Below the pieces are notes generated by a model. The model saw only the letters and a program-made list of their open reading frames with translations, was not told the DNA's origin and did no database searches. From Vermamoeba vermiformis (Eukaryota), in assembly GCA_045837725.1 (NCBI GenBank), contig JBEWZL010000152.1:372001-436000 (forward strand): DNA of 64,000 nt. Reading direction: 5' to 3'. Both the position numbers and the translations under genes were made by a program. Shown piece after piece: positions 16,735 to 63,028 of this stretch. Each line of letters starts with the position of its first letter. Positions within the stretch are counted from its first letter, which is position 1.

Positions 16735-18882
16735 TTATTTGCTTCCTAATTTAGCACGCAAATTCTCCAACTTGTTGATGTACTCATCGACATCATCTTC
16801 GTCGACAGGGGCATTATGTCTGGCTTTCTTACAGCCACCGTCTCCATATTTCTTCAAGCAGCAAATGTAAGTGAGGACCTTAGCGTCAAATCCAGGCTTC
16901 AGCAGCAACAAATCAATGTCTTTTTGTTCGATTGGTCGCCACTGAGCCGGTGACAATCCCGCGTTGAATATAAAACCGTCGTGGAAGACACCTAATACAA
17001 TATTAGCATGCTAGTTAATAGCCACTTCTATTGATGCACTTACAAGCTGCCATGCGATTATCGGCCTCGACATAGGTCTCCTTGCAGTTGTGACACTTGC
17101 GCGGCAAATTCTTGTCGACCTCTTCTTGACGACGTTGCTTTTGTTCTTCAGGTGTGACTGCAAAGGGAGTGTTAACAGACATGTGATCGATTGAAGTTGG
17201 TAACTTACGAGGCCACTCCAATGCTTTCTTAAAAGCACGTGTTAAGAACGGATGCTTTGAAATGACAACGACCCAGAACTCTCTGTTCTCATCGAATATT
17301 GCACGTTTAGCGGTCTGAATGACGAAGTTGAACATGCGATGGTTGTTGATCGAGTATGATGTGGATAAGCCCTAAGAAGATGATCAGCACCACTAACTCT
17401 CTTGTCAAAGGCGATGTACATACCATATTGGAAATGCTCTCGTTGTCGTTCACACCAACAAGCGAGTCCAAATCAAAGATCGCCATAGACTTGACGTACT
17501 CACCGCACTCATTCACTTTGTCCGTCAAGTTCTCCATTGCCTTGTTGTCATCAAAGGCTGCACTTGAGAGCAACAGATCCAAGTCAAAGAGTTGAATGTA
17601 GTCGAGACTGCGTTGGAATGCAAAATCAGCGAGCCAAGGCAATACTTTGAACGTGGATGAAAGACCCTTGACAGCCTTCTCCTCCAAGCTAATCTCCTTT
17701 TCTGTTTGAATGACACGTGCTTTCAAGTCAATGTGAACGCGGCCAGTCATGTTGTCCTTTTGGCCAGGAGAAGGAACGACCTTCGCCACGTTGGCTGAGT
17801 AAATAGAGTTAACTCAATGGCAAGGCACCGTACAGTCGAGGCACTTACCTTTGCCTTCAGAGTTCAGCGTGTCAATCAGCTGCTTATTGGTCTTCAAGAT
17901 CAAAGGCAATGAATAGTTGCCAAGACGGATTGAGAACTGGTTGCTGATAATAATGGCCAGGTCCAACAACTCATCATTGGTGAGCTGTTGCTTGTTGTTC
18001 ATCTTCGAGAACACGATCATATTAGATCGCAACTGCACCATAGCAGCACCACTGAAGTTGGTAGTCAGCGTGACGGCAAAGCGCATTTGCTCCTCAGCAA
18101 TACGAAGCTAGCATGTGTCAGTTATATGATAGCTATAATGATTATCATCCGTACCTTCTGTTCCTCAACTGCCTTCATAATAGCCTCACGTGCTTTACGA
18201 CCAGGTCGGCCAACGAAGAACTTGCCCGACATTCGACGCAAGAAGGCTTCATCCATCATGTTCAGTCTGTTCGTGGATGCCAAGAAGATCAAATTAGGCA
18301 CATCCTTAATGCCTCCAATCACAGCCAAGAGGACACTCAATGCGTCAACTTTGTGCTCTGAAGCACCACCATCTCTCTTCGGGGTCAACGAGTCTGCTCA
18401 ACGTTAGCACACGCATGCATGACCAGACTAATAACATACCGATTTCATCAATAGAGATGCAGCATAGTAAGTGTGGCACTCGTCGTGCACGATTGCAGAG
18501 GTCCAACAGAATTCTTTCAGTTTGACCAACCAACGAGCGGTTGCTGGGAGCACGTGCTCGGGGATCCACCTGTGGTGGTCCCTTAGGGGCAACAGCTTGA
18601 CGTGGCTGGCAATAGAAAATAAATACAAGGTCGATTATAATACTTATAGCTTACGGCTGGCTCGGGCACTTCATTTGTCTGCTTGTCAATTTCAGCATTA
18701 ATGGCTCGGATCATGCTCGAAAACCCAAAGCAATTATTATAACCAGCCTCGTATACAGGCCTCTCTTTAGTATCGATCAATTGACCAAAGTATTCCAGCA
18801 TCTCATCCAACGACTTTTGCTTATTTTTCAATTGCAATATTTGGTCGTAATTATTTTGAAAAAAATCCACAATACTGTCCAT
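16735..18882 (-). CDS. Two-domain AAA+ (CDC48/NSF-like) protein lacking Walker A, with C-terminal Cys/His zinc finger; 5' end uncertain
   Basis: NRSLVGQTER, Walker B CCISIDEI|DSLTPKR, second region of homology LASTNRLNMMDEAFLRR. Degenerate second domain SMAIFDLDSLV. C-terminal CHNC...C..FHDG...YICC...GC...H. Confidence 0.8.
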
Positions 18883-19158
18883 ATTTCTGTATTTTAATAC
18901 CTGAGAATACAAGTTAATTAATATTCCGCTTGAAATCAATTCGCCAATTGGTTATCAAGTCTTACTGTCGCACCTTTCTCTAATTTATGAAATACTGTTG
19001 ATTAATAATATGTATAGCACTAAGGACTCGTGTGCTACTCGAAGAATAAGATTGAACAAGAAAAATTGAAAAAAAATTCAAATTTTATAACTTTGAAGAA
19101 GAGCACAACGCCTGTACATAGTGTATTTATTGTATTATTAATATTTATATTATATTTA

Positions 19159-22100
19159 ATGGATCCAACCGCGGCCCAACAACTGGATGCTTGGATCGGC
19201 GAGGGCTGTCGATATACTTGTCTTTACAGGGCAGCCACTGACGGATTCAGCAACAAAACATTTCACAAATTATGCGATCATAAAGGACCAACAGTAGCAC
19301 TAGTAAAGCTAAAGGATGGTCGCCTGTTTGGCGGCTACACAACTACTGCGTGGACGAGTGCATCTAGAAACTTCCAGCCAAGCATCAATTCCTTTTTATT
19401 TATGTTATATGTTGATAGTAGAACATTTAAGCCTATTTTCTGCCCTCCAGTGCCGAATCATACCAAGTCTGTCCTACACGACCTCAACTTCGGGGCCTTC
19501 TTTCGGGCAGAGCGACCTGATAATTAATTTAGATAATTTAAGTTCTTCATATTGTGCAGTTAGTAAGTACAATCACTCATATAAGACCAAATATAATTTC
19601 ATTCGAAATTTTTTTCGTATTTTTTATTTATTCGAACCCTTTTCGAATACTGTAACAATTGTCTGCAGCAGCATTTACATTTAGCAATAGAAATAATTCA
19701 ATTTATTACGGCTGCATCTTAATTAATTTCCCATACCCGCAGACAGCGCGTACAAGGTTCCCAAAGGTTGGGATGCACTTGGTCAAACCTGTATAACCCC
19801 TTCAGCCAATGGATGGGGCTCGCAAGTTGAAGATGTATTTGTATATTCTGTCAGTCCTCGTACGTAGCGCGCATTGACTTGCGATCTGCTCGATCGTGAC
19901 ACCTCTTACTCACGCACATCTTTTAGTGAACCTCGTATCAACAATATTAGATGAAAAGTCGTTTGGCCAGCTCACTGATTGGATAGGAAAGGTGTGCAGC
20001 TTTACGGTCCTGTACAAAGCTGCATTGAATGGATGTAGTGCTCGTTTGTTCCACAGTTTGTGCGACAATCAAGGTTCGTAACAATACGTCTATTTGTGGA
20101 TTAATTAATGCTGATTTTCGTTTTCCGGACAAGTGGCAGCAGTATAAAATAAGTCCGCGTGACATATGAAACTGATCTCTACCTCTTTAGGTCCCACCAT
20201 TACAGTAGTATCAACACGTTCAGGCCGAGTGTTCGGTGGATATACCCCAGAGTCATGGGCTGGTGTCGATTATAAAGCAGCACCGCGCTCGTTCTTATTC
20301 TTGTTGTACAGCGGTCAAGGCAAATACACGCCTGTCCTATTTCCAGGTGCGTAACATTAACCGCGTATTTACAGAAAAACAACTTAAAGGAACATTTTCT
20401 CTGTCATAATGCATATATATTTTACTACGACTTAAATGCCCCGCGATAGTTCTTTAATGACAGCGGATCAATTCGCCACGAATGATAGCAAGTCTAATTT
20501 TATGCCAGTATCTATTTATTACAATGAAATTATTTCTAATTTCTTCACTTTCCTTTGCGGTATTCTATTAATAGTAGCTCTAACTGTTATTTAGCAAAAC
20601 AAAACCAGCCACACACAATATGTCGACATCCAGCACTAGGCCCTACTTTTGGAGGCGGTTATGACTTGAGCATTAACCTAGATGATAGTAAGCTTGGAAT
20701 TTACGTAATTTTGCCACTTTCACCGTTGTAGATAACATTTTTACGCTTTTAGTGCCCGCATCAAGTTCCAACCTTGGCGTGTCATTCGAACTGCCATCTG
20801 GAATGCAAGGTCAAACTGCACTGGCAGGATCCTATAATACTTGGGGTGGTGAAGTCGTTGATATCGAAGTTATTCAAGGTATAAGTACTATCGGAGAATA
20901 GCACTCGGAGTTAATTCTAATCAATTGGTCAATAGTATTCGAGACTGAAATACCTCCTGAACTCAAACAACAAGCAAAGCCTAAACCACCTCCTAAACCT
21001 CAACCTAAAGTCAAACCGCAACCGGTGACACCTCCAAAAGCGACAGCTACGCAACCGACATCTAACATACAACCGGTGAAGTTGCCGATTCCTGATTGGG
21101 CATCGCTGTGGAAGGACGTTGACTTCTTATTCAAGTATAAGCCAAGGTAAATACTTAATATTAATATTAAAGACGCAAATTCCACTCACATAAAGTTCTT
21201 CGTTCACTGAATCGGTAAATTAGTGCTATTTTTAACTACTGCATATTTCGGATACTTTTTATTCCCCTGTGCCCGATTTCGTATGCTAAATTTGCCTCAT
21301 AGGTACGGCGAAGAGCTCGGCGTGATTTCAGCCAATGTGCTGCTGGTCGGAGGAGTGAACAGCGGCAAATCATCATTCGTCAACTCGGCCTACAGCACCG
21401 TGTCGAATCATGTCGAGTTTGTGGCTCCTGTTACAGGCGGTAAGTGTTGACTCGTTGCGAATTGAATCAAGCTTCGCCTTGCACCTTCGGAGACGAATGG
21501 CACCTCAGCCTCGTGACCCGTTAATCTCCGTCGTAGCTAGTTTGTTGACCTATCGGTTGTGTTCTCGTCATGATAAGCTGAAATTAGCGCTGCCGAAATT
21601 TTATTGGCTGTGTTACCGTTGATGTCGAGTCTTTACCTTGACATAGCACGTCGGTTAATGAAATTAGACCATTCATTAACTGATTCAATTGGCAATCGAA
21701 CATTATCGAATATCATGTCGCTGAGTTTTCAAGCGTGAAATCGTACGTGTGTCAATGACGAAATTATTCCACGCACGTCGAGTGAGGACTATTAGATTAC
21801 GAGATTACTATCATACTGGGTGCCGCTTGCAATTTACTACGGCAGTAAATCGACCGCTTGATATTTAATCTCACTTTTAATCTCCCGCAATTGCTTTTTT
21901 TGGACCTTTTGACCGTTAAGTTTTCCTGACCTTTACGTAAATCAGCCAGTCAAAGTTGGACACTTTATGCTATTTCTCGGATAAATTCCACGTAAACTAA
22001 TCCTTACTTTTAACTAGGTAATGATCCGACGACGCTAGACTACGAGCGTTATCCGTTACTCGACTTGAATGTAGAACTGCGCGATATGTGGGGCTGGAGT

Positions 22101-23817
22101 GACAAAGGACTCGATGTAAGTTAGTCGTTAAGTATAATTTCAACACTATACAGCGGTGGACCATAGAATTCCGTGGATTTACCGTTGCACGCACACCTCG
22201 AGATCACGTGCTGAAACGAGGAAAAACTTAAGTTTATAGTGCTAAAATTCCGGCTGAAACGGTTAATTCCCGATTCGGTAAACGCGGGATTGATCTGCTT
22301 TCTCGACGTTTTGAGGTTAAGTAATCGCAAAATTGACATTTTTTCTATTAGGCCAAGGAAATCGAGTGGTTAATCGATGGAAAGGTTCCGAACAAGACTA
22401 GGAAGACAGAGCTCAACCCCCGATTCAATGGCCTGCAAACAGTAAGTCAGATGTTGGCAGATCGTGTGTCACCGTTTTTTTAATTGACGCCTCGGGTTAC
22501 AAAATCTTCTATCGAATCGCAACTTTAATATAAATTGAACCAAGATATTTGTTACATATTGTCTCAATATCGGTCACTCGCGGGTTAAAATTTATTTTGA
22601 CAGGTATGAAAGGGCAAAATTTGTGTGAATCAAACTTTTACTCAGATCCGCCTAGATTTTTTTCTTATTTATGCGAATAATTGCAAAGTAACCACTTCGA
22701 ATCAAATCATGCATTGGAATTCTAATATATTTTGCGTTTCGGTTTCTAATTGTAAACAATAGTCGGCTGCCCTTTTATTTTTTAAGATTGCGAATAAATT
22801 CGGTGTACTGCGTGCGGATGTGTTTCGCTCACAATTTCTCACGTGTTATTTTAGGAGGTTTCGCTTAGTGATGCCGCTCATGCCGTAATCATATTTGTAC
22901 CTGCGAGTGCTATGCGTGACTTCGCGGCCTACTGGACCAGATTTGAAACTCTACTTAAAATTGCACGAACAAAAGGTAACCCCGCGTTTATAGCCATAAT
23001 TGGCAATTCTAATTTGTATGATGCTCCAGATATGCAAGTGGTAGTTGTAATTGCCATGTCAGATCTGCTGGACGACGCGTGTAAAGGCCACGCTGAGAAA
23101 GTGTATGAGAGCAATGCAGTCGCTCAAGCAATCGCGCAGATTCACCACGTCACCGGCCTGCCTCCTAACACTATCTTTCCGCTCGTTAATTACTTCTGGA
23201 ATGATACTGGCAAGAGCATGATTATCGAGAAAATGGTAGCGATGATTCTGATCCGTGTGCTGGAGCAAGCTGATGGCATGTTCTTGCGCCGATTCAATCA
23301 ACAACGCCTTGGGTAAGTATTTTTACACTTTAGCAACGTGCTTGTTGCGATTCCAGTCGCCTGTATATAGTTTGCCAAATTGCGAAACACAAAATCTTTG
23401 TTTCTGGAACGTGCTCATCGATTAAACAGAGGAAAGCCCAAGCAATCCCCGACTGGTGTTAAGAAGGAGGATGTATCAGAAGCGAAAGATAAACTCCAAG
23501 CGCTATCAATCGTGGATCAGGTCCCAACGGACACCGAACCAAAACGTCAGAAGTTCAGACTGACGTTGTTTGTGCGAGCTGAAGAAGAAACAGGTGATAC
23601 TTTCGAAGAGATAGAAATCAACAGACCTACCCTCAATGAGCTCAAGAAGAAGATCTGCGAGAAATTTGCGCCACGTTTGCCAGACATGATCTTGAGCATC
23701 AAAAAGCTGAGCGGCGAGAATAAGAGTGTCAAAGTGCTCGTGGCCGACGACGAAGCAGTTAGTAAGCTAAAAGATGAATCAAGTATCGAAGTCGAGTTCC
23801 GTACTGAACGTTGGTAG
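19159..23817 (+). CDS. IFI44-like protein: TLDc-TLDc-Pro-rich linker-P-loop GTPase-ubiquitin-like domain; +1 frameshift near 19475
   Basis: Two TLDc repeats (LYRAATDGFS..FHKLCDHKGPT..FGGYT; LYKAALNGCS..FHSLCDNQGPT..FGGYT..GPTFGGGYDL). G1 LLVGGVNSGKSSFVNS, G3 LRDMWG, and IFI44-like IFPLVNY. The last exon is joined via intron about 23313-23429. Confidence 0.8.
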
Positions 23818-25457
23818 TGGCTGCGGCACAATTTTTACTGCGGAAATTTCTGCAATAAATTGATCAATTTATCGCTATTTGATACTGCATTTACAGAGTA
23901 AATCATGGAAATATCGCATTACCCTACCCCAGTAACCCTTTATGTGATCAGAGTACGTTGCTTGCGCACGGTCAAGCTGTTTTGAAGATACGGGGCATCG
24001 AGTACAAAATAGGCAAAACTGGCTTTTAGCCAATCATCTAATGTAGATTTACTTATTGAACCATTCTAGGCTTTAAGGTCGTTCATTAATGTTCACCTGT
24101 CGAAATGCAATGAATTTCCGCTTGAAACTGAAAGCTAAAAGTAGTTTCTTCGGACGATCTCCTTTCGATAAACTGTTAAGTGAGTCAAATGGTAGAAAAC
24201 ACTAAGAATTTGTCACGGTTTTACTTAACCTGACATTTGGCCTGAATATGTCTGGCGTTGAAGAAAATCTTTTGGATTCGCATCCCAACGACAATCCCCA
24301 AAAAGAGAAATCTCTAATCGATGGAATCCTTTCGGCCGTTTTCGAGTATTACTTAACCTTACACTGATTCAGGAAAACAATCGCGATGCTTACAAGTAAA
24401 GCATTGCTGAAATTATTGGAGCTATCTTTAGCTCTTTGTGCGCATTACACGGTTGAATAATCCAGCCTAACTGAAATCGTTACTTAAGCTCCAAATAAAC
24501 CTCCTCGATACCAATCGATCACTTTTGTAACCAAAAAGAAAGGCATCTGCGCTTAAAGTTTCCGACATAATTTGTGACGGAAAGGAGCGCAATTCGAGCT
24601 TCATAGGACTTGCACGCGTAGTAGTACCGAAACTCGTTAGTATTTTGGCGATGGTACGCTCAGGAACAATAAATTTTATTGTGCTTGCGATAAAACCAAA
24701 TAATTCCTATTTCAGACCTGAATAAATGCAATGACTCGGACCTATTTACAGCGTATCTTACTGGGTGGGCCGATGACTTGTAACAAGTCTTCAAGATTGG
24801 ATTTCGATTGTGCACGCTCGGGACGTTTTCGGCAGCGTCATAAGTCTTTCGAACGTTAGTGCGTAAGGCAGTTAAGACATAAAATCGCACTAAAGCAGCA
24901 AATAATAATAAAAATAATTCATTCAACTTGCTGTCATGATGGATTCCATGTCCCAGATCAAATCGAAGCGGATGCACTCCGGCGCACCGAGCCATAATAG
25001 CAATGGATGTGCGCGTAGCTGAAAAAGAAGGAAAAATCAATAAGGCTATATAAGTCAAAATGAAAACACTTGAGTGATTCACAATGGGATTCATTAGGAT
25101 TGCTGAATCTCACTTCTCAATCCACCTGTCTGGGTGTACTAAAAATATATTATTGCGCGAGATTCTCCGGCCAAAAAAAAAGGCCATGTGACTGACAAAG
25201 GGATAAATAAGCGTGAAAATTGGTTAGTTTTTATTCCATCACCAACTGGACTGCAACAGGTTAGCTGAAACCTTGTATAGTATTACTTGCAAGGTCTTAC
25301 ATCCACCGGGCTTACATCGTCATCATTGGTTAAAATCAAAGAGCAACCTTGCCTCGCATCAAGTAAGTTCCGCATCCCACAAACCCCGTAACTTACCTCA
25401 TCCGCTACTTGGGCCTTGAATTGACTAACGCTTTACTTTGCAGTTATTCATTATAAA

Positions 25458-56454: not shown

Positions 56455-59400
56455 TTATTCCGCGGTGTTATTTTTAGCTTGCTTTTGACGCTGTTTTTCC
56501 GCTTTCCACTGCTCAATGCGCTGCTTGAGCTCGACATCGGGCTTGAGCATGTCGAGGGTGAGGGGCTGACGATTGAACGGATCAGTCGGCGAGGTGAGCA
56601 AGTGGCGCGTGATCACCGTGCGGTCGATGGTCATGCCCGAGGGCAGCACCACGGGGTCACTCATCACCGTGCTCAACAGCGGGTCCAAGAACTCGTCAGG
56701 CGCGTCACTCAGATCCAGTTCATCCTCGCGTGCCTGCGCTGCTTCTTCTTCAATGGCACGCAGCACTTCGTCAAAGCTGTGCACGTGTTCGCTGCTCAAC
56801 AGACTCTTGTTCTTCAGCACTTCACTCACGCGCTGCCACGTGCGCAGATCAAATGCACGTGTGTCACGCACAATGGCGCGCACAAAGTCCTGGCTGCGCA
56901 AGCCAATAGCGATCAGTGCCAGACGTGTCAGCAGTTCACCAGGTGAGAATCGTGCGCGGCGATGAGGCTGCACGGCGAGTCTCGCAGCATTCGGTCCGAC
57001 GAGTTGACGCGTGAAATAATTGACGAGCACGGCCAATCGCTCCAACACCTCTGCGCGGTGCAGCACTGAACTGCCGTCATCGAGCTTGGTGACCACCACG
57101 AGCAGCTTGAGTGTGTCGTGTGCGAGCAGACTGAATGTGGTCATTTGATTGGTCTCCGTGTGCAGCTCTTGTTGCAGTTCAGTGCGGTGTTGTGCATCGC
57201 GTTGTGCCCACTGATCGCGGTCCTCCATCATCAGCTCAATCTCGCGAATGCGCGGCAGCTTGCTCATCAGTTCTTCGAGCAGGTACATGGCATCGTTCAT
57301 GATCATGTTCAAGAAGTGCATGAAGCGGTGCTCGTCGTGCATCACTGCGCGGAACTCGCTCGGGTACTCGTTGCTGGTGGAGGCACTCAGTCGTTCAGCG
57401 AGCAGTGCCAGCAACAGCTTGGCAATGTGGCGCCGCACAAAGAACTTGTCGTAGAACTGCGAGGCCCGGCCCGTGCGTTCAATGTCAATGTAGACATCGA
57501 GCAGTCCGTGCAGCACTGTGCGCGGTGCTTGGTCTTGCAGTGGATCTGCTTCCCAGGACAGGCGCGCACGTGACGGCAGTTCAGCCCCGTCCTCGTCGAG
57601 GTGTCGATAGAGGGCTGTCATCTCCCACAAGACTTGCACCAACTTGCCGCGGAGATAGGGCGAGTTGATGCCGTGCTGCTGGCCAGCGAGGGGTGCGAGG
57701 AACTTGACGATGAATGTGACGAGGTGGTGGTAGTGCTGGGGCGGCAAGTGCAGCTGATACACGTCCTCGAGATCTTGGGCGCGCACTGCTGCTTGCATCT
57801 TGAGCACGAACAGCACGAAGCTGGCGAGATCATCGACGAGATACTCGGGCACCAGCGCGAGGGCAGGCACGTGATGTTCAGCGAGGTGCAGCAGCCAGCG
57901 CGCAGTGAAGGAGTAGAACTGCAGGGCGTGTTGCAGCAGTTCAGGGTCCAAGAGCTGCGCGTCCATGGTCAGCTTCATCACGGCAAGGTTGTCAATCTGT
58001 TGCGCGAGTGCTGTCAACTGCTGCTCGTTCACGGCAGCCATCATCGCGTGTCCGCTCCACTCAGCACGTGTCGCATTCAGCTGCGCGCGTCGTTCTTGCA
58101 TGTGAATCAGTTGCTGCACGAACTGCAAATAGGCCTCGCAGCTGCTGGCCAGACCCGTGTGCAGCACTTGCAGCGTGGTGAAGAAACACTGCGTCACAAA
58201 GCTGTGATTGGTCAGTGCCGCGCTCGCACTGTCACGTGGCTCAGTCGTGATCAGCTTGGTCTCGCTGCTGTACTGCAAACCGAGACTGTTCTGCTGCAAA
58301 AATTCAACTTCAATGCTGCTGTGTTTGTCGAGCTTCAATTCAGTGAACGGCTGTGACAACTTCAACATGACAGCTGTCAAATTGAGGAACACACCGTCCG
58401 AGCACGTGGTCACTTGACGTGTCATCAAGTGTCCTAATTGAGAGCGCGACTTGTTCTGCTGGCACAGTGCCACCACGCACTCCAACACGCCTTCGGTGTC
58501 GCGCGACAGTGCTTTGCGCTCCATTTTGATCACCTGCGTGAGCGTGCTGGCGAGTGAGGTGTGCAGCGAGTGCAGCAGTGCGCGCAGTTGTGTGAAGGCC
58601 GCGGACAGTTGCGCACGTGTCACTTGACCGCGCTGTGGGAAGTACTGCTGTGCCACCGCGAACTGTTTGTAGCTGCAGAGTGACAGCGCGGGACCGAGCA
58701 GTGATTCGAGCTCGAATTGGCGACCGTTCATGAACCGTGTGGGTGACCAAGCCACGTGACGCTTGATGCTGGCAGCGAGGGCAGGGTGACAGCTGAACAG
58801 TCGCAAGAAAATAGCTGCAATGGATAGCGAGTGCGTGTCAACCAGGGCACCACGCGAGATCTTGCGCGCGAGATCGCTGACCAGGGGATGAATCACGTGA
58901 TCGAGCGTGTCACCGTGCTGATCAGCTACCAGGGCCAGCAGTGCAGAACTGACTTGCAGCTCGTAATCTCCTGAATATCTCGACATGCTCGAATTAGCAT
59001 CCGCTAATAATAGCTCTTCCAAAATAGGCCATGTGACAGTATTCTGCTCGCACAGTGGTGACAGCAGTGCCGTGTCTTGCAGCACCAGACCCAAATAAGT
59101 CGCGATCGATCGTTCCACTGTTGTCACGTGCTCTGCGGTGCTCCACGTGCGACCTGTCAGCTGATCACGTGCTCGGTTGAAGCTCCGCACGAGATACTCA
59201 ATGGCATCACGTGACGCGGTGAATTGTGCGAGTCTCTCGAGCAGCAGCGAGTCCACGTGACCAGGTGTCAAAGTGTCACTCGCGCTGTGTGTCAATTCGT
59301 CACTCAGCCCTGGTAGATGGGCACGATCTTTGCTGGCACCTGTCAATGATACGCGGAATATTTCGAGCAATCGTTCATGAAGCAACTGCGCCGGAGACTT

Positions 59401-60089
59401 GACTTTGACAGGTGTCGTGTCAGTGAGGGGGCTGGTGGCACTCTGCTCGCTCTGAGGGGCAGTCTCGTGCTTGGTGTAATGGCCCTCATGCTTATTGTTG
59501 TCCTCGTTATTAAGGCCCGCAGTATTATTGTTATCATTAAGGCCCTCACTATTATAGGATGGGCCCTCACTCTGCGTCCTCGTCTCGCTCTTGGTGCTCA
59601 CACGTGTCAAGAACTGCGCGTTGAGCTCCTGATGACTGCGCACGGGCTCGCTGTGCTGCACTGGCTCTGTGCGCGCAGTGGACTGTGTCACAACGGGCTC
59701 GCTCGTCGTCAATTTGTAGCGACGCAAGCGCTTGTTGCGCAGCTCTTCGGATGTGGAGGGATCTTGAACGGGTGCTGGAGCAGGAGTGATGTTGGTGTTG
59801 TTAGTATTTTCTACTCTTCGCGGTACATGTTGTTTGGTCAATAGCTGAACATTTACAGTAATTAGCGACAATATTAATTATTTTTCAAATTAATGCTAAA
59901 TATTCGTCGACGAAGTTGTGCCTTCACTGCAAATTGAATACTAACAGCATACGGACGATGCGCTAATAATAAAAGTACAGCGCTTACCTTTCGCAAAAAC
60001 ACGGCTAATACCAAGACAACAACGACGAAGAACCAAATAAAGTTGTTGGATGTGGCGGTGTCTACGCCAGTCGCTTGTTGTTCCTCCAT
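56455..60089 (-). CDS. UFD2: U-box ubiquitin conjugation factor E4 (UFD2/UBE4) with predicted N-terminal TM helix
   Basis: Ufd2 core ([39 protein letters not shown]) and U-box [19 protein letters not shown]. Exon 1 (60089-59988) splices in phase 0 to 59844. Confidence 0.9.
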
Positions 60090-60330: not shown

Positions 60331-63028
60331 TTATTTGGCTTGTTTGGGTGCGCCAGGTCCTATAAATAGAGCCGCTGGTCAGATCTGCTACTTGATCGCT
60401 GCTACACGAGCTAGCGCGACTACTTACCAGGCACATATCCGCGACCCATCTGTGGCTGCGAGGGATAGGGTGCGCGGGGCTGCGCAGTGGCACCAGGCAC
60501 TTGTTGTTGTCCCGCCCAGTACTGTGGTGGCACATTGCCAGTGCCTTGCGGTGGCATCCAATAATACACAGGGCGTTGTTGTGCGGGGTAAGTGCCAGGC
60601 TGGGGATAGTTGCCAGGATAGGGCCCTGGTGCACCGGGCTGCGGTTGAGGTTTGGGCGCGAGTTTGGGATCGGCAGGGTATGGTGGCACATAGCCAGGAT
60701 AGGGCAAGGTGGGGGGCAGCGCATCGAGATCGGGAGTCTTGGGCAGCATGCTGGGTGAGGTCGGGGCTGGTGACATGTAGGGCATGGGCTGCAGGGGCGG
60801 CATGAAATCGGGGTGCGGAATAACATTGGGTGGCATCATCATCGACATGGGCTGTGGTGGCACCCACTGACCCTCGTAGCCGTACTCGTTCATGAACGCG
60901 TAGTCGTCGTAGCCGTAGTCCACGCCCATCATGTAATTGCCCTCCACGGCCATGTACTCCATGCCAGGTGCCATCACATTGGGCGCGGACGAATTCTGTG
61001 CTGGCACGCGATAACTCTCGCGATATCGACTGCCCTCCCACTGCGGCACCACATCACGTGCCACTTTCTTGCCGCCAGTGCTGGTGCGCTGTTTCATGGC
61101 GCGACAGTAGACCTCGGAGATGGACTGACGCGTGTCAATGTACGGGGCCTTGCGCGAGGCCGGGAAGAAGGACGAGACTGGGGGCTGTGGCACGGACTGC
61201 GAGGAGCCCAGCAGCGTGGCAGCGAGGGGCTTGAACTCTTGCGCATTGGGATTCAGCTTCAGCTTGGGACGGGCGGGGGCTGGGGCGGTGGCACTGGTGG
61301 CACTCTTCTTGTCCTCCGCAGCGGGCTTGGCAGTGCCACGTGTCTGCAAAAATGACTTTTTCTGCGCGAGTTCGGTGCTGAACTTCTTGAATTCTTGCAA
61401 AGTCTGTTCGCGGCGCTCAGTCTTGCTCTTCTCTTTGAGACTGAAGTTGACAAAGTCCTGCAGCACCTTCTCACTCATCTTGGGCGACGCGGGCTGCAAG
61501 TTGAGGGCACTGACGGCTTTGGGGTCACTGATCAGCGGTGAGGTGCGGCCGTGCAGCTTGGGCGAGGTGTGTCCTGCGAGCTGTTGTTTGAGTCGCTTGA
61601 ACTCCGTCACCAGCACCGTGCGGTCCTGCGGTGTGACGGGCGGTGACATGTACACGGACAGCGAGGCCGTTCTGTTGCCACGCACTCGCTTCAGCAGCGA
61701 GGGCTGACTGTTGCTGCGTGTCTGCACGCGTCCAATGAGATCTTCCGCCTCTCTGGACTCTGCTGGCACTGTGCCACTCTCCGTGTTGGTGTTATTGCCA
61801 ATTTTGTCCGCACTCTGCGTCAACACACTCGCGCTGGCACCTGTCACACGTGGTGGTGCATCGGTGCCACGTCGTGCTGGCACTACGTATTTGGACTTGG
61901 GTGCGACAGCGGTGCTATTATTAGCCGCGCTATTATTAGCAGCAGGCTCCAATTTGATCTTCGCCTCGTTGGGCCGCAACACACTGGAATAGCGCTCCTC
62001 CTCGTCCAAGTGCTCAAAATTGACTTGTCCGCGCTCCTCTGCGATGTGTATGTTGTCCGACTGATCTGCCAATATCTCCGCGGCAATGCGCTGTGCCTCG
62101 TGCTCCAACTTCTTGTAGCTGGGATCGCTCTTGTTGATCACACTCGTGTAGATCTCCTCGCGGAAGGTGCTCTTCACGCCAAACTTGCGCTGATTCACTT
62201 CGAACTGGTCCCAACTGCCCGTAGTGTGCGCACCTTCGTCGAACTCCAGACTCGCGTGACTGGCAATGGGCGGATCCAGCTTGAACGGCACGAACTGTTT
62301 CTCGTGCAGATTGCGTCGCTTGGAGATACCGACGTCCGTGAACTCGTCGTTGTACTCGTCGTGGTAGTCGTACTCGTCGCCGCGCAGTTCCACGCCCTCG
62401 CTCTTCACTGCCTCCTCGCGCACGAACAGCCCGCCCTGGCCCTCGTGATACAGCGCGTGCAGGCCACTGTCTGCGCCCACCACATCGACCTCGCGCGCCA
62501 CGATCTGCACCACCTCCTCGCCACTCAACAGCACTCGTGCCGCAGGACGAGCCAGCACGTCACTCTTCTTGCGCGCCCAGGACAGCACCACGGCCAGTGC
62601 GCCGATGGGCTGTTGCGCACGTGACTTGGCCGCAGCGAGCAGTGCAGCAGGATCCGCGCCACTGCCAAAGTCGACGAGCAGCTCGTTGTAGTTGTGCGGC
62701 GAAGAGAGTCCTACGGTGTGGAAGTGTCCCTCCCAGATCTGCTGGTCACGTGTCTGCACTTCCACGCGCTGACCCTGCACCTTATTGTAAGGACCAGGTA
62801 CATATATATATATGGCGCGTGCTGGACTTACAATGAAGCTCAACGCGATGAATAACATGCGCTCTAAGTTCCGATCAGCTGACTTGTCTTGATCCGTTCT
62901 GAAAGCAGTTTCAAAATTAATTTTAAAAATCATATTGACTCTATATAACGCATTTGTATTGTCGCTACATACTTGTGATCATTTGTCTTCTTATCCACAT
63001 TATTTTTATTTTTCTGTGCTTTGCTCAT
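60331..63028 (-). CDS. ATXN2: Ataxin-2/Pbp1 homolog (LSm, LsmAD, PAM2)
   Basis: FTDVGIS, WDQFEVNQRKFGVKSTFREEIYT, HIAEERG, EEERYSSVLR; PAM2 KLKLNPNAQEFKP; Pro/Gln/Tyr-rich tail. Confidence 0.9.

Follow-up and report, generated by a model that had tools for sequence, protein, structure and literature searches.

A four-domain IFI44-type gene in an amoeba, the first of this form found

The 64,000 nucleotides of Vermamoeba vermiformis DNA analysed here (assembly GCA_045837725.1, contig JBEWZL010000152.1, positions 372,001 to 436,000 of the forward strand; hereafter the window) carry at 19159-23817 on the + strand a spliced gene whose predicted product combines, from the N- to the C-terminus, two TLDc domains, a proline- and lysine-rich linker, an IFI44-type G domain, a further linker and a ubiquitin-like (beta-grasp) domain. 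Overall, the locus is very probably a protein-coding gene of a Vermamoeba-like amoeba, in which a TLDc-G core is accompanied by a second N-terminal TLDc domain and by a non-conjugatable tail of the GRHL1_C/ANKRD40_UBL kind. Judged by its sequence, the product belongs to a eukaryote-wide family that joins TLDc to an IFI44-type P-loop GTPase, and animal IFI44 and IFI44L would form one branch of it. Among the proteins examined, the combination of two TLDc domains, G domain and ubiquitin-like tail was found only in the Vermamoeba-like family, where no fewer than two lineages that have diverged from each other possess it (91% and 55% identity), and it is the first four-domain IFI44-type form found. 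Literature searches, with supplements outside their reach, returned no description of protist IFI44-type proteins or of the four-domain form, so that the earlier note on this DNA, which had called the architecture undescribed, is borne out to that extent; in the available part of one preprint (10.1101/2024.09.18.613514) IFI44L serves only as a read-out gene.

The gene model, with exons joined by script, consists of 13 exons and 12 GT..AG introns of 54-578 nucleotides, and extends from the ATG at 19159 to the stop codon at 23815-23817, as read from stop-to-stop frames and from inspection of 18900-24100. Its product of 789 residues is valid only if one base of the GGGG run at 19492-19495 is skipped. 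The word-index search with the exon 22855-23310 retrieved, as the sole protein among 519 candidates, P0001 (651 residues, from a 2275-bp contig), with which the model shares 91% identity across all 651 residues with one gap. Because of this alignment every junction from exon 2 onward is confirmed, including the last intron at 23313-23429, over which P0001 reads ...FNQQRLGGKPKQ... and thus joins the last exon in frame; the 54-nucleotide intron at 22976-23029 is missing from P0001, which reads ...IARTKDMQVVV... there. Two full-length relatives, P0159 (790 residues, a member of the P0001 cluster, 91% identical across the compared part) and P0163 (827 residues, from a second cluster that is 55% identical in the G domain), possess the N-terminus MD..QLD.WIGE as in the window. 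The word-index searches (one of 519 and two of 1831 candidates) yielded no homologues beyond the family itself, the metagenome scan gave a single locus, L001, which is 86% identical with the same exon structure at its 3' end, and no second copy of the gene was found inside the 64-kb window.

Splicing is further addressed by the contigs of run X5, listed only as a guessed RNA run, from which 11 of the 12 predicted introns are missing, with joints that are GT..AG or equivalent. Solely intron 20074-20190 lacks a listed X5 joint, three joints have one or two substituted letters, and some X5 depth lies within introns. A 938-nucleotide X5 contig bridges 23028-23309 and 23429-23843 and thereby joins the G-domain exon to the last exon. 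The features of the gene are, on the + strand throughout:

19159..19562, +, exon 1: start codon and most of TLDc domain 1 (Pfam TLD 58.5 bits); the N-terminus agrees with P0159 and P0163, and X5 contig 9 covers 19104-19562 and is then spliced to 19743
19743..19859, +, exon 2: end of TLDc domain 1; X5 joints 19562>19743 and 19859>19927 (GT..AG); P0001 alignment
19927..20073, +, exon 3: start of TLDc domain 2 (Pfam TLD weak, 13.5 bits); junctions confirmed by P0001
20191..20346, +, exon 4: TLDc domain 2 (Pfam TLD 23.8 bits for the piece 20193-20345); P0001
20595..20687, +, exon 5: TLDc domain 2; X5 joints 20344>20593 (cut +2) and 20687>20753; P0001
20753..20878, +, exon 6: end of TLDc domain 2; X5 joints; P0001
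20936..21146, +, exon 7: Pro/Lys-rich linker; X5 joints; the IFI44-type homologous stretch begins at about 21094 (alignment)
21303..21439, +, exon 8: G1 P-loop GGVNSGKSS; weak P-loop Pfam matches; motif alignment
22018..22115, +, exon 9: switch-I Thr and G3 DMWG; X5 joint 21438>22017 (cut +1)
22352..22441, +, exon 10: G-domain insert with a conserved LDG motif; X5 joint 22115>22353, one letter between
22855..22975, +, exon 11: middle of the G domain; P0001; X5 joints
22976..23029, +, 54-nucleotide intron inside the open frame 22855-23316; X5 joint 22973>23028 (cut +2), GT..AG
23030..23312, +, exon 12: G4-equivalent AMSD and C-terminal helices of the G domain; same exon in L001
23430..23817, +, exon 13: charged linker, ubiquitin-like (beta-grasp) domain at 23536-23814 and stop codon (Pfam GRHL1_C 31.7 bits)
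23854..23859, +, AATAAA, candidate polyadenylation signal (sequence reading); X5 contig 13 extends to 23843

The two TLDc domains, the PKP-rich linker, the G-domain motifs and the spliced last exon which the earlier note had described are all located where it had placed them, and its proposal that two TLDc domains, an IFI44-type G domain and a GRHL1_C-like domain make up one spliced gene agrees with P0159 and P0163. The last exon, which as a separate gene would have refuted that reading, is part of the same gene across intron 23313-23429, as P0001 and the 938-nucleotide contig demonstrate. What had been overlooked is the intron 22976-23029, since the frame 22855-23316 had been read through, so that 18 residues of that reading are intronic, and the one-base frameshift at 19492-19495 in exon 1.

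When the 13 exon pieces were compared with Pfam, matches (E value ≤1) were obtained for five, with TLD (PF07534) on three of them (58.5, 13.5 and 23.8 bits), and exon 1 alone lies above the gathering threshold of 24.5 bits. Two TLD stretches each are recognized in the full-length relatives, by Pfam with 125.4 bits in P0159 and 96.6 bits in P0163 and by the NCBIfam TLD model NF038124 with 121.7 and 118.7 bits, respectively. A sequence search of the PDB with P0001 gave weak TLDc matches only, to Skywalker TLDc (E 0.0018) and to mEAK7 chains in entries of the vacuolar-type ATPase (V-ATPase; E 0.037-0.14).

The G domain displays the motifs GGVNSGKSS, DMWG and AMSD. Compared with the TRAFAC-type pattern, it has G1 GxxxxGK[ST] and G3 DxxG, and of G4 [NT]KxD it retains the Asp. 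A profile of the G domain and tail of P0001 and P0002, searched against 1.84 billion representative proteins, recovered 850 proteins at E ≤1e-3, of which 315 reach ≤1e-10 and 10 reach ≤1e-30, and the best stretches fall in the G domain for all of the 150 matches listed. Among 21 non-family matches which were looked up, three bear the NCBI name "interferon-induced protein 44-like" (Ruditapes, Mya and the fish Halichoeres) and none has a septin, GIMAP or IRG name; the others looked up include uncharacterised bivalve and fish proteins, one JGI record called RsgA-like and six EukProt records, such as Cyanophora paradoxa (two), Pellita catalonica, Andalucia godoyi and Stephanoeca diplocostata. Pfam GTPase families score at most 17.5 bits on family sequences, and a features search of the ESM Atlas with the G domain found IFI44-like clusters at 0.97. 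By profile search, Pfam and Atlas, the G domain is nearer to IFI44-like proteins than to other GTPase families.

The core of the protein can be followed beyond the G domain. Of the profile matches, 13 of 66 (E ≤1e-3) and 12 of 82 (E ≤1e-6) carry TLD on the N-terminal side of the G domain, and two TLD stretches were observed in none of the 25 TLD-bearing matches outside the family. Residues 177-670 of P0159, comprising the second TLDc domain, the linker and the G domain, align by BLASTP end to end with whole TLDc-G proteins, among them P0016 (E 2.8e-49), P0040 from Pellita catalonica (1e-39), an Andalucia godoyi protein (3e-37), the IFI44-like protein of the clam Mya (8.6e-34) and a fish IFI44-like protein (7.6e-22); P0048 and the NCBI-named IFI44-like P0054 and P0068 are among the end-to-end partners. 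In an alignment of 17 sequences GK[ST], DxxG and the G4 Asp are invariant (17/17). With TLDc directly N-terminal to the G domain and collinear with recognised members, the amoeba protein thus falls within the broad IFI44-type family, IFI44 itself having been listed as the most distant TLDc protein (PMC5614904, as far as the part available goes). The TLDc-G core is seen in Amoebozoa, a jakobid, a glaucophyte, a choanoflagellate and animals, which suggests that the module is probably older than animals and interferon.

A separate observation concerns the relatives of the G domain, which in P0012, P0015, P0035/P0038, P0032/P0051 and P0014/P0045 occur fused to Ig, SPRY, EF-hand, HTH_17 and SAM modules or are repeated in tandem, with two to four G domains per array. 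To judge from these combinations, the IFI44-type G-domain family appears to shuffle domains heavily.

G domain and tail also occur together in other surroundings. A tail profile run over 222 fetched proteins matched outside the family only P0128 (E 1.2e-7), composed of VWA, G domain and a GRHL1_C-like tail (24.4 bits), and P0089 (E 0.002), composed of VWA, fn3, G domain and tail, and both are collinear with residues 420-786 of P0159 (E 7.5e-17 and 6e-14, respectively). As the G domain with a ubiquitin-like tail thus stands behind two kinds of N-terminal modules, TLDc twice or VWA, the two domains may represent a conserved working unit. A third candidate, P0042, whose C-terminus has a weak Pfam KHA match (26.6 bits), was dropped, as hhalign with the tail profile found no match there (probability 0.1). 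Among viral contigs, 13 pattern matches included no relatives.

The tail itself is under strong purifying selection. Between the window and L001 the proportion of differing synonymous sites (pS) in the ubiquitin-like part of the last exon is 0.70 and that of nonsynonymous sites (pN) 0.055, with a ratio of nonsynonymous to synonymous change (dN/dS) of about 0.03, as expected for a constrained coding exon. An AlphaFold2 model of the tail from six aligned sequences (mean predicted local distance difference test, pLDDT, 72.9; predicted template modelling score, pTM, 0.63) has the ubiquitin order b-b-a-b-b-a-b, whereas an earlier model of the whole last exon from three sequences (pLDDT 56.6) was too poor for searching. 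Foldseek with the tail model retrieved from the PDB seven matches at E ≤1e-3 and many just above, all of them ubiquitin-like folds; the tail profile gave no match to PDB sequences at E ≤10. Since the C-terminus ends in ...FRTERW, without Gly-Gly, the tail is not a conjugatable ubiquitin-like modifier. The prediction of a complex of two tail copies, with a score of 0.00, is evidence neither for nor against a dimer. In the accessible parts of the respective papers, the dimerisation domain of GRHL proteins is described with ubiquitin-like folds (PMC7471608), and residues 486-618 of GRHL1 are stated to contribute to dimerisation, while the deposited structures comprise the DNA-binding domain only (PMC5829564).

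The relation to the animal proteins was addressed with trees of the G domain, built without an outgroup, the first of which omits seven near-duplicate or partial rows and matches of fewer than 180 profile positions. In the FastTree of 142 rows the named IFI44-like proteins are contained in an animal clade (support 98), and the amoeba family (99) is located outside of it. In a quick IQ-TREE analysis (LG+C20) of 46 chosen rows the animal clade (99) is separated from the amoeba family by a further split (96), on one side of which are the animal clade and the TLDc proteins of Andalucia, Stephanoeca and Cyanophora, while on the other side the amoeba family is joined by the VWA-type proteins and by the TLDc proteins P0016, P0024, P0040 (Pellita) and P0083. 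The amoeba G domain is thus not a member of the animal IFI44/IFI44L clade in either tree. The position argues for a member of the wide IFI44-type family and against an orthologue of animal IFI44, and IFI44 function is not simply transferable. The earlier designation as an IFI44-like gene is consequently retained in part: the named best matches of the G domain are IFI44-like, but the gene lies outside the animal clade (98 and 99), and the phylogeny suggested at that time places it within the wide family, though among protist TLDc-type and VWA-type relatives. Likewise, the attribution of the tail to the CP2/Grainyhead type is borderline: the window exon (31.7 bits) and the beta-grasp fold agree with it, but only one of six sequences reaches the GRHL1_C cutoff.

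Besides the place of the G domain outside the animal clade, several observations weigh against the overall reading, among them the broken frame of exon 1 in the window. The GGGG run at 19492-19495 (+) has one base too many, an apparent +1 frameshift with different frames on either side, and exon 1 as written changes frame there and stops at 19525-19527. If the extra G is real, the window copy is a pseudogene or null allele which ends after 122 codons, and the full protein exists only in the relatives of other strains. RNA is in line with this, as the omission of a base at 19491 is absent from the reads of X21 (0/1) and X23 (0/3) and from the X5 contig (0 of 5.01 depth), so that the lesion may be real in some strains. 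A 934-nucleotide DNA contig of run X1 does omit one base at 19491 (depth 53.4 of 53.4), and the X1 haplotype therefore has an open exon 1; however, some 20 substitutions and 11 further listed indels separate it from the window, the indels all intronic and some of them of 2-3 nucleotides, which makes X1 a different haplotype or strain and no plain correction of the window. On the other hand, the frameshift is the sole defect in 2370 coding bases, 12 of 12 introns keep GT..AG and the right phase, and 11 of the 12 listed X1-versus-window indels are intronic, with the frameshift base as the only exonic one. The site lies in a homopolymer, a kind of sequence prone to assembly errors, one gap falls at an unspecified place within 19104-19562 in X5 contig 9, and P0159 and P0163 read through the site uninterrupted. 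A pseudogene is thus rather unlikely, and the frameshift reflects an error of the assembly or else a lesion specific to the strain; in the latter case this strain would be a natural null allele. The raw RNA runs X21 and X23, of the same species label, also count against the gene as modelled, as they yield just 46 and 53 reads, mostly 95-99% alike, and nine reads in each continue past 19867 into the diverged intron 19860-19926. This read-through could stem from intron retention or from DNA carry-over of a 95-99% similar copy, and the reads represent low-level transcription of a diverged copy with no usable joints. The odd TA..CT joint 20673>20800 in three raw RNA reads was taken as a mapping effect from the diverged copy.

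Further points concern the two C-terminal domains. The G4 Lys is replaced by Met in three of three family members, in which the Thr/Lys pair has become Ala/Ser-Met, and no CP2 DNA-binding domain was detected in P0159 and P0163 (E ≤5e-4) or in the window exons (E ≤1). Loss of the Lys ([NT]KxD to [AS]MxD) might abolish guanine-nucleotide binding or specificity and leave the G domain as a pseudo-GTPase scaffold without a nucleotide cycle. However, G1, the switch-I Thr, G3 and the G4 Asp are retained, the conservation of the motifs between members of 55% identity argues for their use, and the Lys position is variable in relatives too: in the 17-sequence alignment it is K in 10, Q in three and H in one of the 14 non-family sequences, one of the Q-bearing proteins being named IFI44-like by NCBI, and Met in the three family members. 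We consider a pseudo-GTPase unlikely. For the tail it is a real possibility, though less likely than not, that it is a generic beta-grasp domain, for instance of the Ras-binding, PB1 or ANKRD40_UBL kind, without specific relation to Grainyhead, and that it binds a partner, possibly a small GTPase or the protein's own G domain, instead of dimerising. Against Pfam GRHL1_C (PF25416; gathering threshold 27 bits) the window exon scores 31.7 bits (E 1.4e-7), but P0001 (25.0), P0002 (23.3), P0159 (24.3), P0163 (23.0) and P0128 (24.4) remain below the cutoff, five of six sequences. In the ESM Atlas model of P0159, residues 700-790 resemble ANKRD40_UBL (template modelling score 0.77-0.78) more than GRHL1_C (0.64-0.66), and the top-ranking PDB structures are those of the ELMO2 Ras-binding domain, of ubiquitin variants, of the ubiquitin-like domain of TBCE and of PB1. 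Yet GRHL1_C is the best or only Pfam family in six of six sequences (the only one on the tail of P0001, P0002, P0159 and P0163), with matches that consistently span columns 3-79 or 19-78 of the 90 in the profile, and its cluster comes first in the Atlas features search, at 0.89, just short of the tool's bar of 0.9. The assignment to GRHL1_C is borderline on these scores.

IFI44 and IFI44L belong to the human genes that interferon induces most strongly, and to our knowledge their biochemical mechanism is still unclear; the amoeba host is not known to have an interferon system. Tentatively, the amoeba protein may act as a nucleotide-switched adaptor on the V-ATPase of endolysosomal or phagosomal membranes. 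The TLDc domains would attach it to the V-ATPase in the manner known from solved structures of mEAK7 and other TLDc proteins, the G domain would serve as a nucleotide-dependent switch or assembly unit, and the ubiquitin-like tail would bring in a partner or a second molecule of the same protein, which together might constitute an interferon-independent stress or defence module of the phagocytic pathway. This possibility is favoured because TLDc domains of other proteins bind the V-ATPase (PMC9263379, PMC11066047, in the parts accessible), to which the weak PDB matches to mEAK7 chains in V-ATPase entries are added, and because IFI44 homologues are up-regulated in the interferon-free antiviral programmes of cnidarians (PMC13319465, likewise); on the opposing side, PADLOC, a prokaryotic defence library, gave no match. 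A much bolder proposal, which we regard as quite improbable, is that IFI44-type TLDc-GTPases are a pre-animal, eukaryote-wide family of cell-autonomous defence, in which the double-TLDc form of Vermamoeba would sit on the phagosomal V-ATPase while GTPase and tail build up a complex against those intracellular parasites whose entry or growth depends on acidification. If true, it would provide, in a system without interferon, a model of how human IFI44 and IFI44L work. A similarly ancient origin is reported for Mx in the accessible part of one study (PMC11789081). As Vermamoeba can be cultured and is, according to the part available of another, a host of giant viruses (PMC9116030), the function of the gene could be tested in a simple cell.

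The surroundings of the gene are those of an ordinary eukaryotic genome, with EMC1, Ssu72, TAF6, UBE2O, UFD2/UBE4 and an ataxin-2-like LsmAD protein encoded in the window. For the UFD2 frame the identity amounts to 90% with EukProt EP00029_Vermamoeba_vermiformis_P011814 and to 91% with a JGI protein, the next best matches being fungal and animal and 29-32% identical, which assigns the genome to a Vermamoeba-like amoebozoan somewhat diverged from the EukProt strain and agrees with the earlier impression of a non-animal genome. Upstream, a spliced gene at 17000-18950 on the - strand encodes a fragment of an AAA+ ATPase (18122-18397, with 32.1 bits for Pfam AAA); its transcription is divergent from that of the IFI44-type gene, and with its 5' end about 200 bp from the start of the latter the two genes may share a promoter region. 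Pfam scans of the flanking open frames gave nothing apart from the AAA fragment. Between 50000 and 62000 the window has a G+C content of 0.52-0.57, compared with 0.38-0.47 elsewhere, and long intron-poor frames, such as UFD2/UBE4 as a single frame of 1140 residues (56455-59877, -) and LsmAD/ataxin-2-like with 852 residues (60420-62978, -); TAF6 and UBE2O are also located in this region.

Among known systems the closest in layout is IFI44/IFI44L (TLDC5), in which an N-terminal TLDc domain is directly followed by a P-loop G domain as in the amoeba protein, and the IFI44-like clam and fish proteins are collinear with it over both domains and share the G1/G3/G4-Asp pattern. The amoeba protein differs by its second TLDc domain, the Pro/Lys linker of about 60 residues, the ubiquitin-like tail and the Met in place of the G4 Lys. 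The VWA-type proteins P0128 and P0089, on the same side of the split in the tree, have the G domain and the ubiquitin-like tail in common with the amoeba family, but a VWA/fn3 module at the N-terminus where the latter has TLDc. With the V-ATPase-binding proteins OXR1, NCOA7, mEAK7 and yeast Oxr1p/Rtc5p it shares the TLDc fold family, while none of these possesses a G domain. Its tail, finally, has a predicted beta-grasp fold in common both with the C-terminal ubiquitin-like domain of ANKRD40 and with the C-terminal dimerisation domain of Grainyhead/GRHL proteins (GRHL1_C), to which it also shows a borderline sequence match; unlike the Grainyhead/CP2 factors, the amoeba protein carries this domain without a CP2 DNA-binding domain, in a context other than that of a transcription factor.

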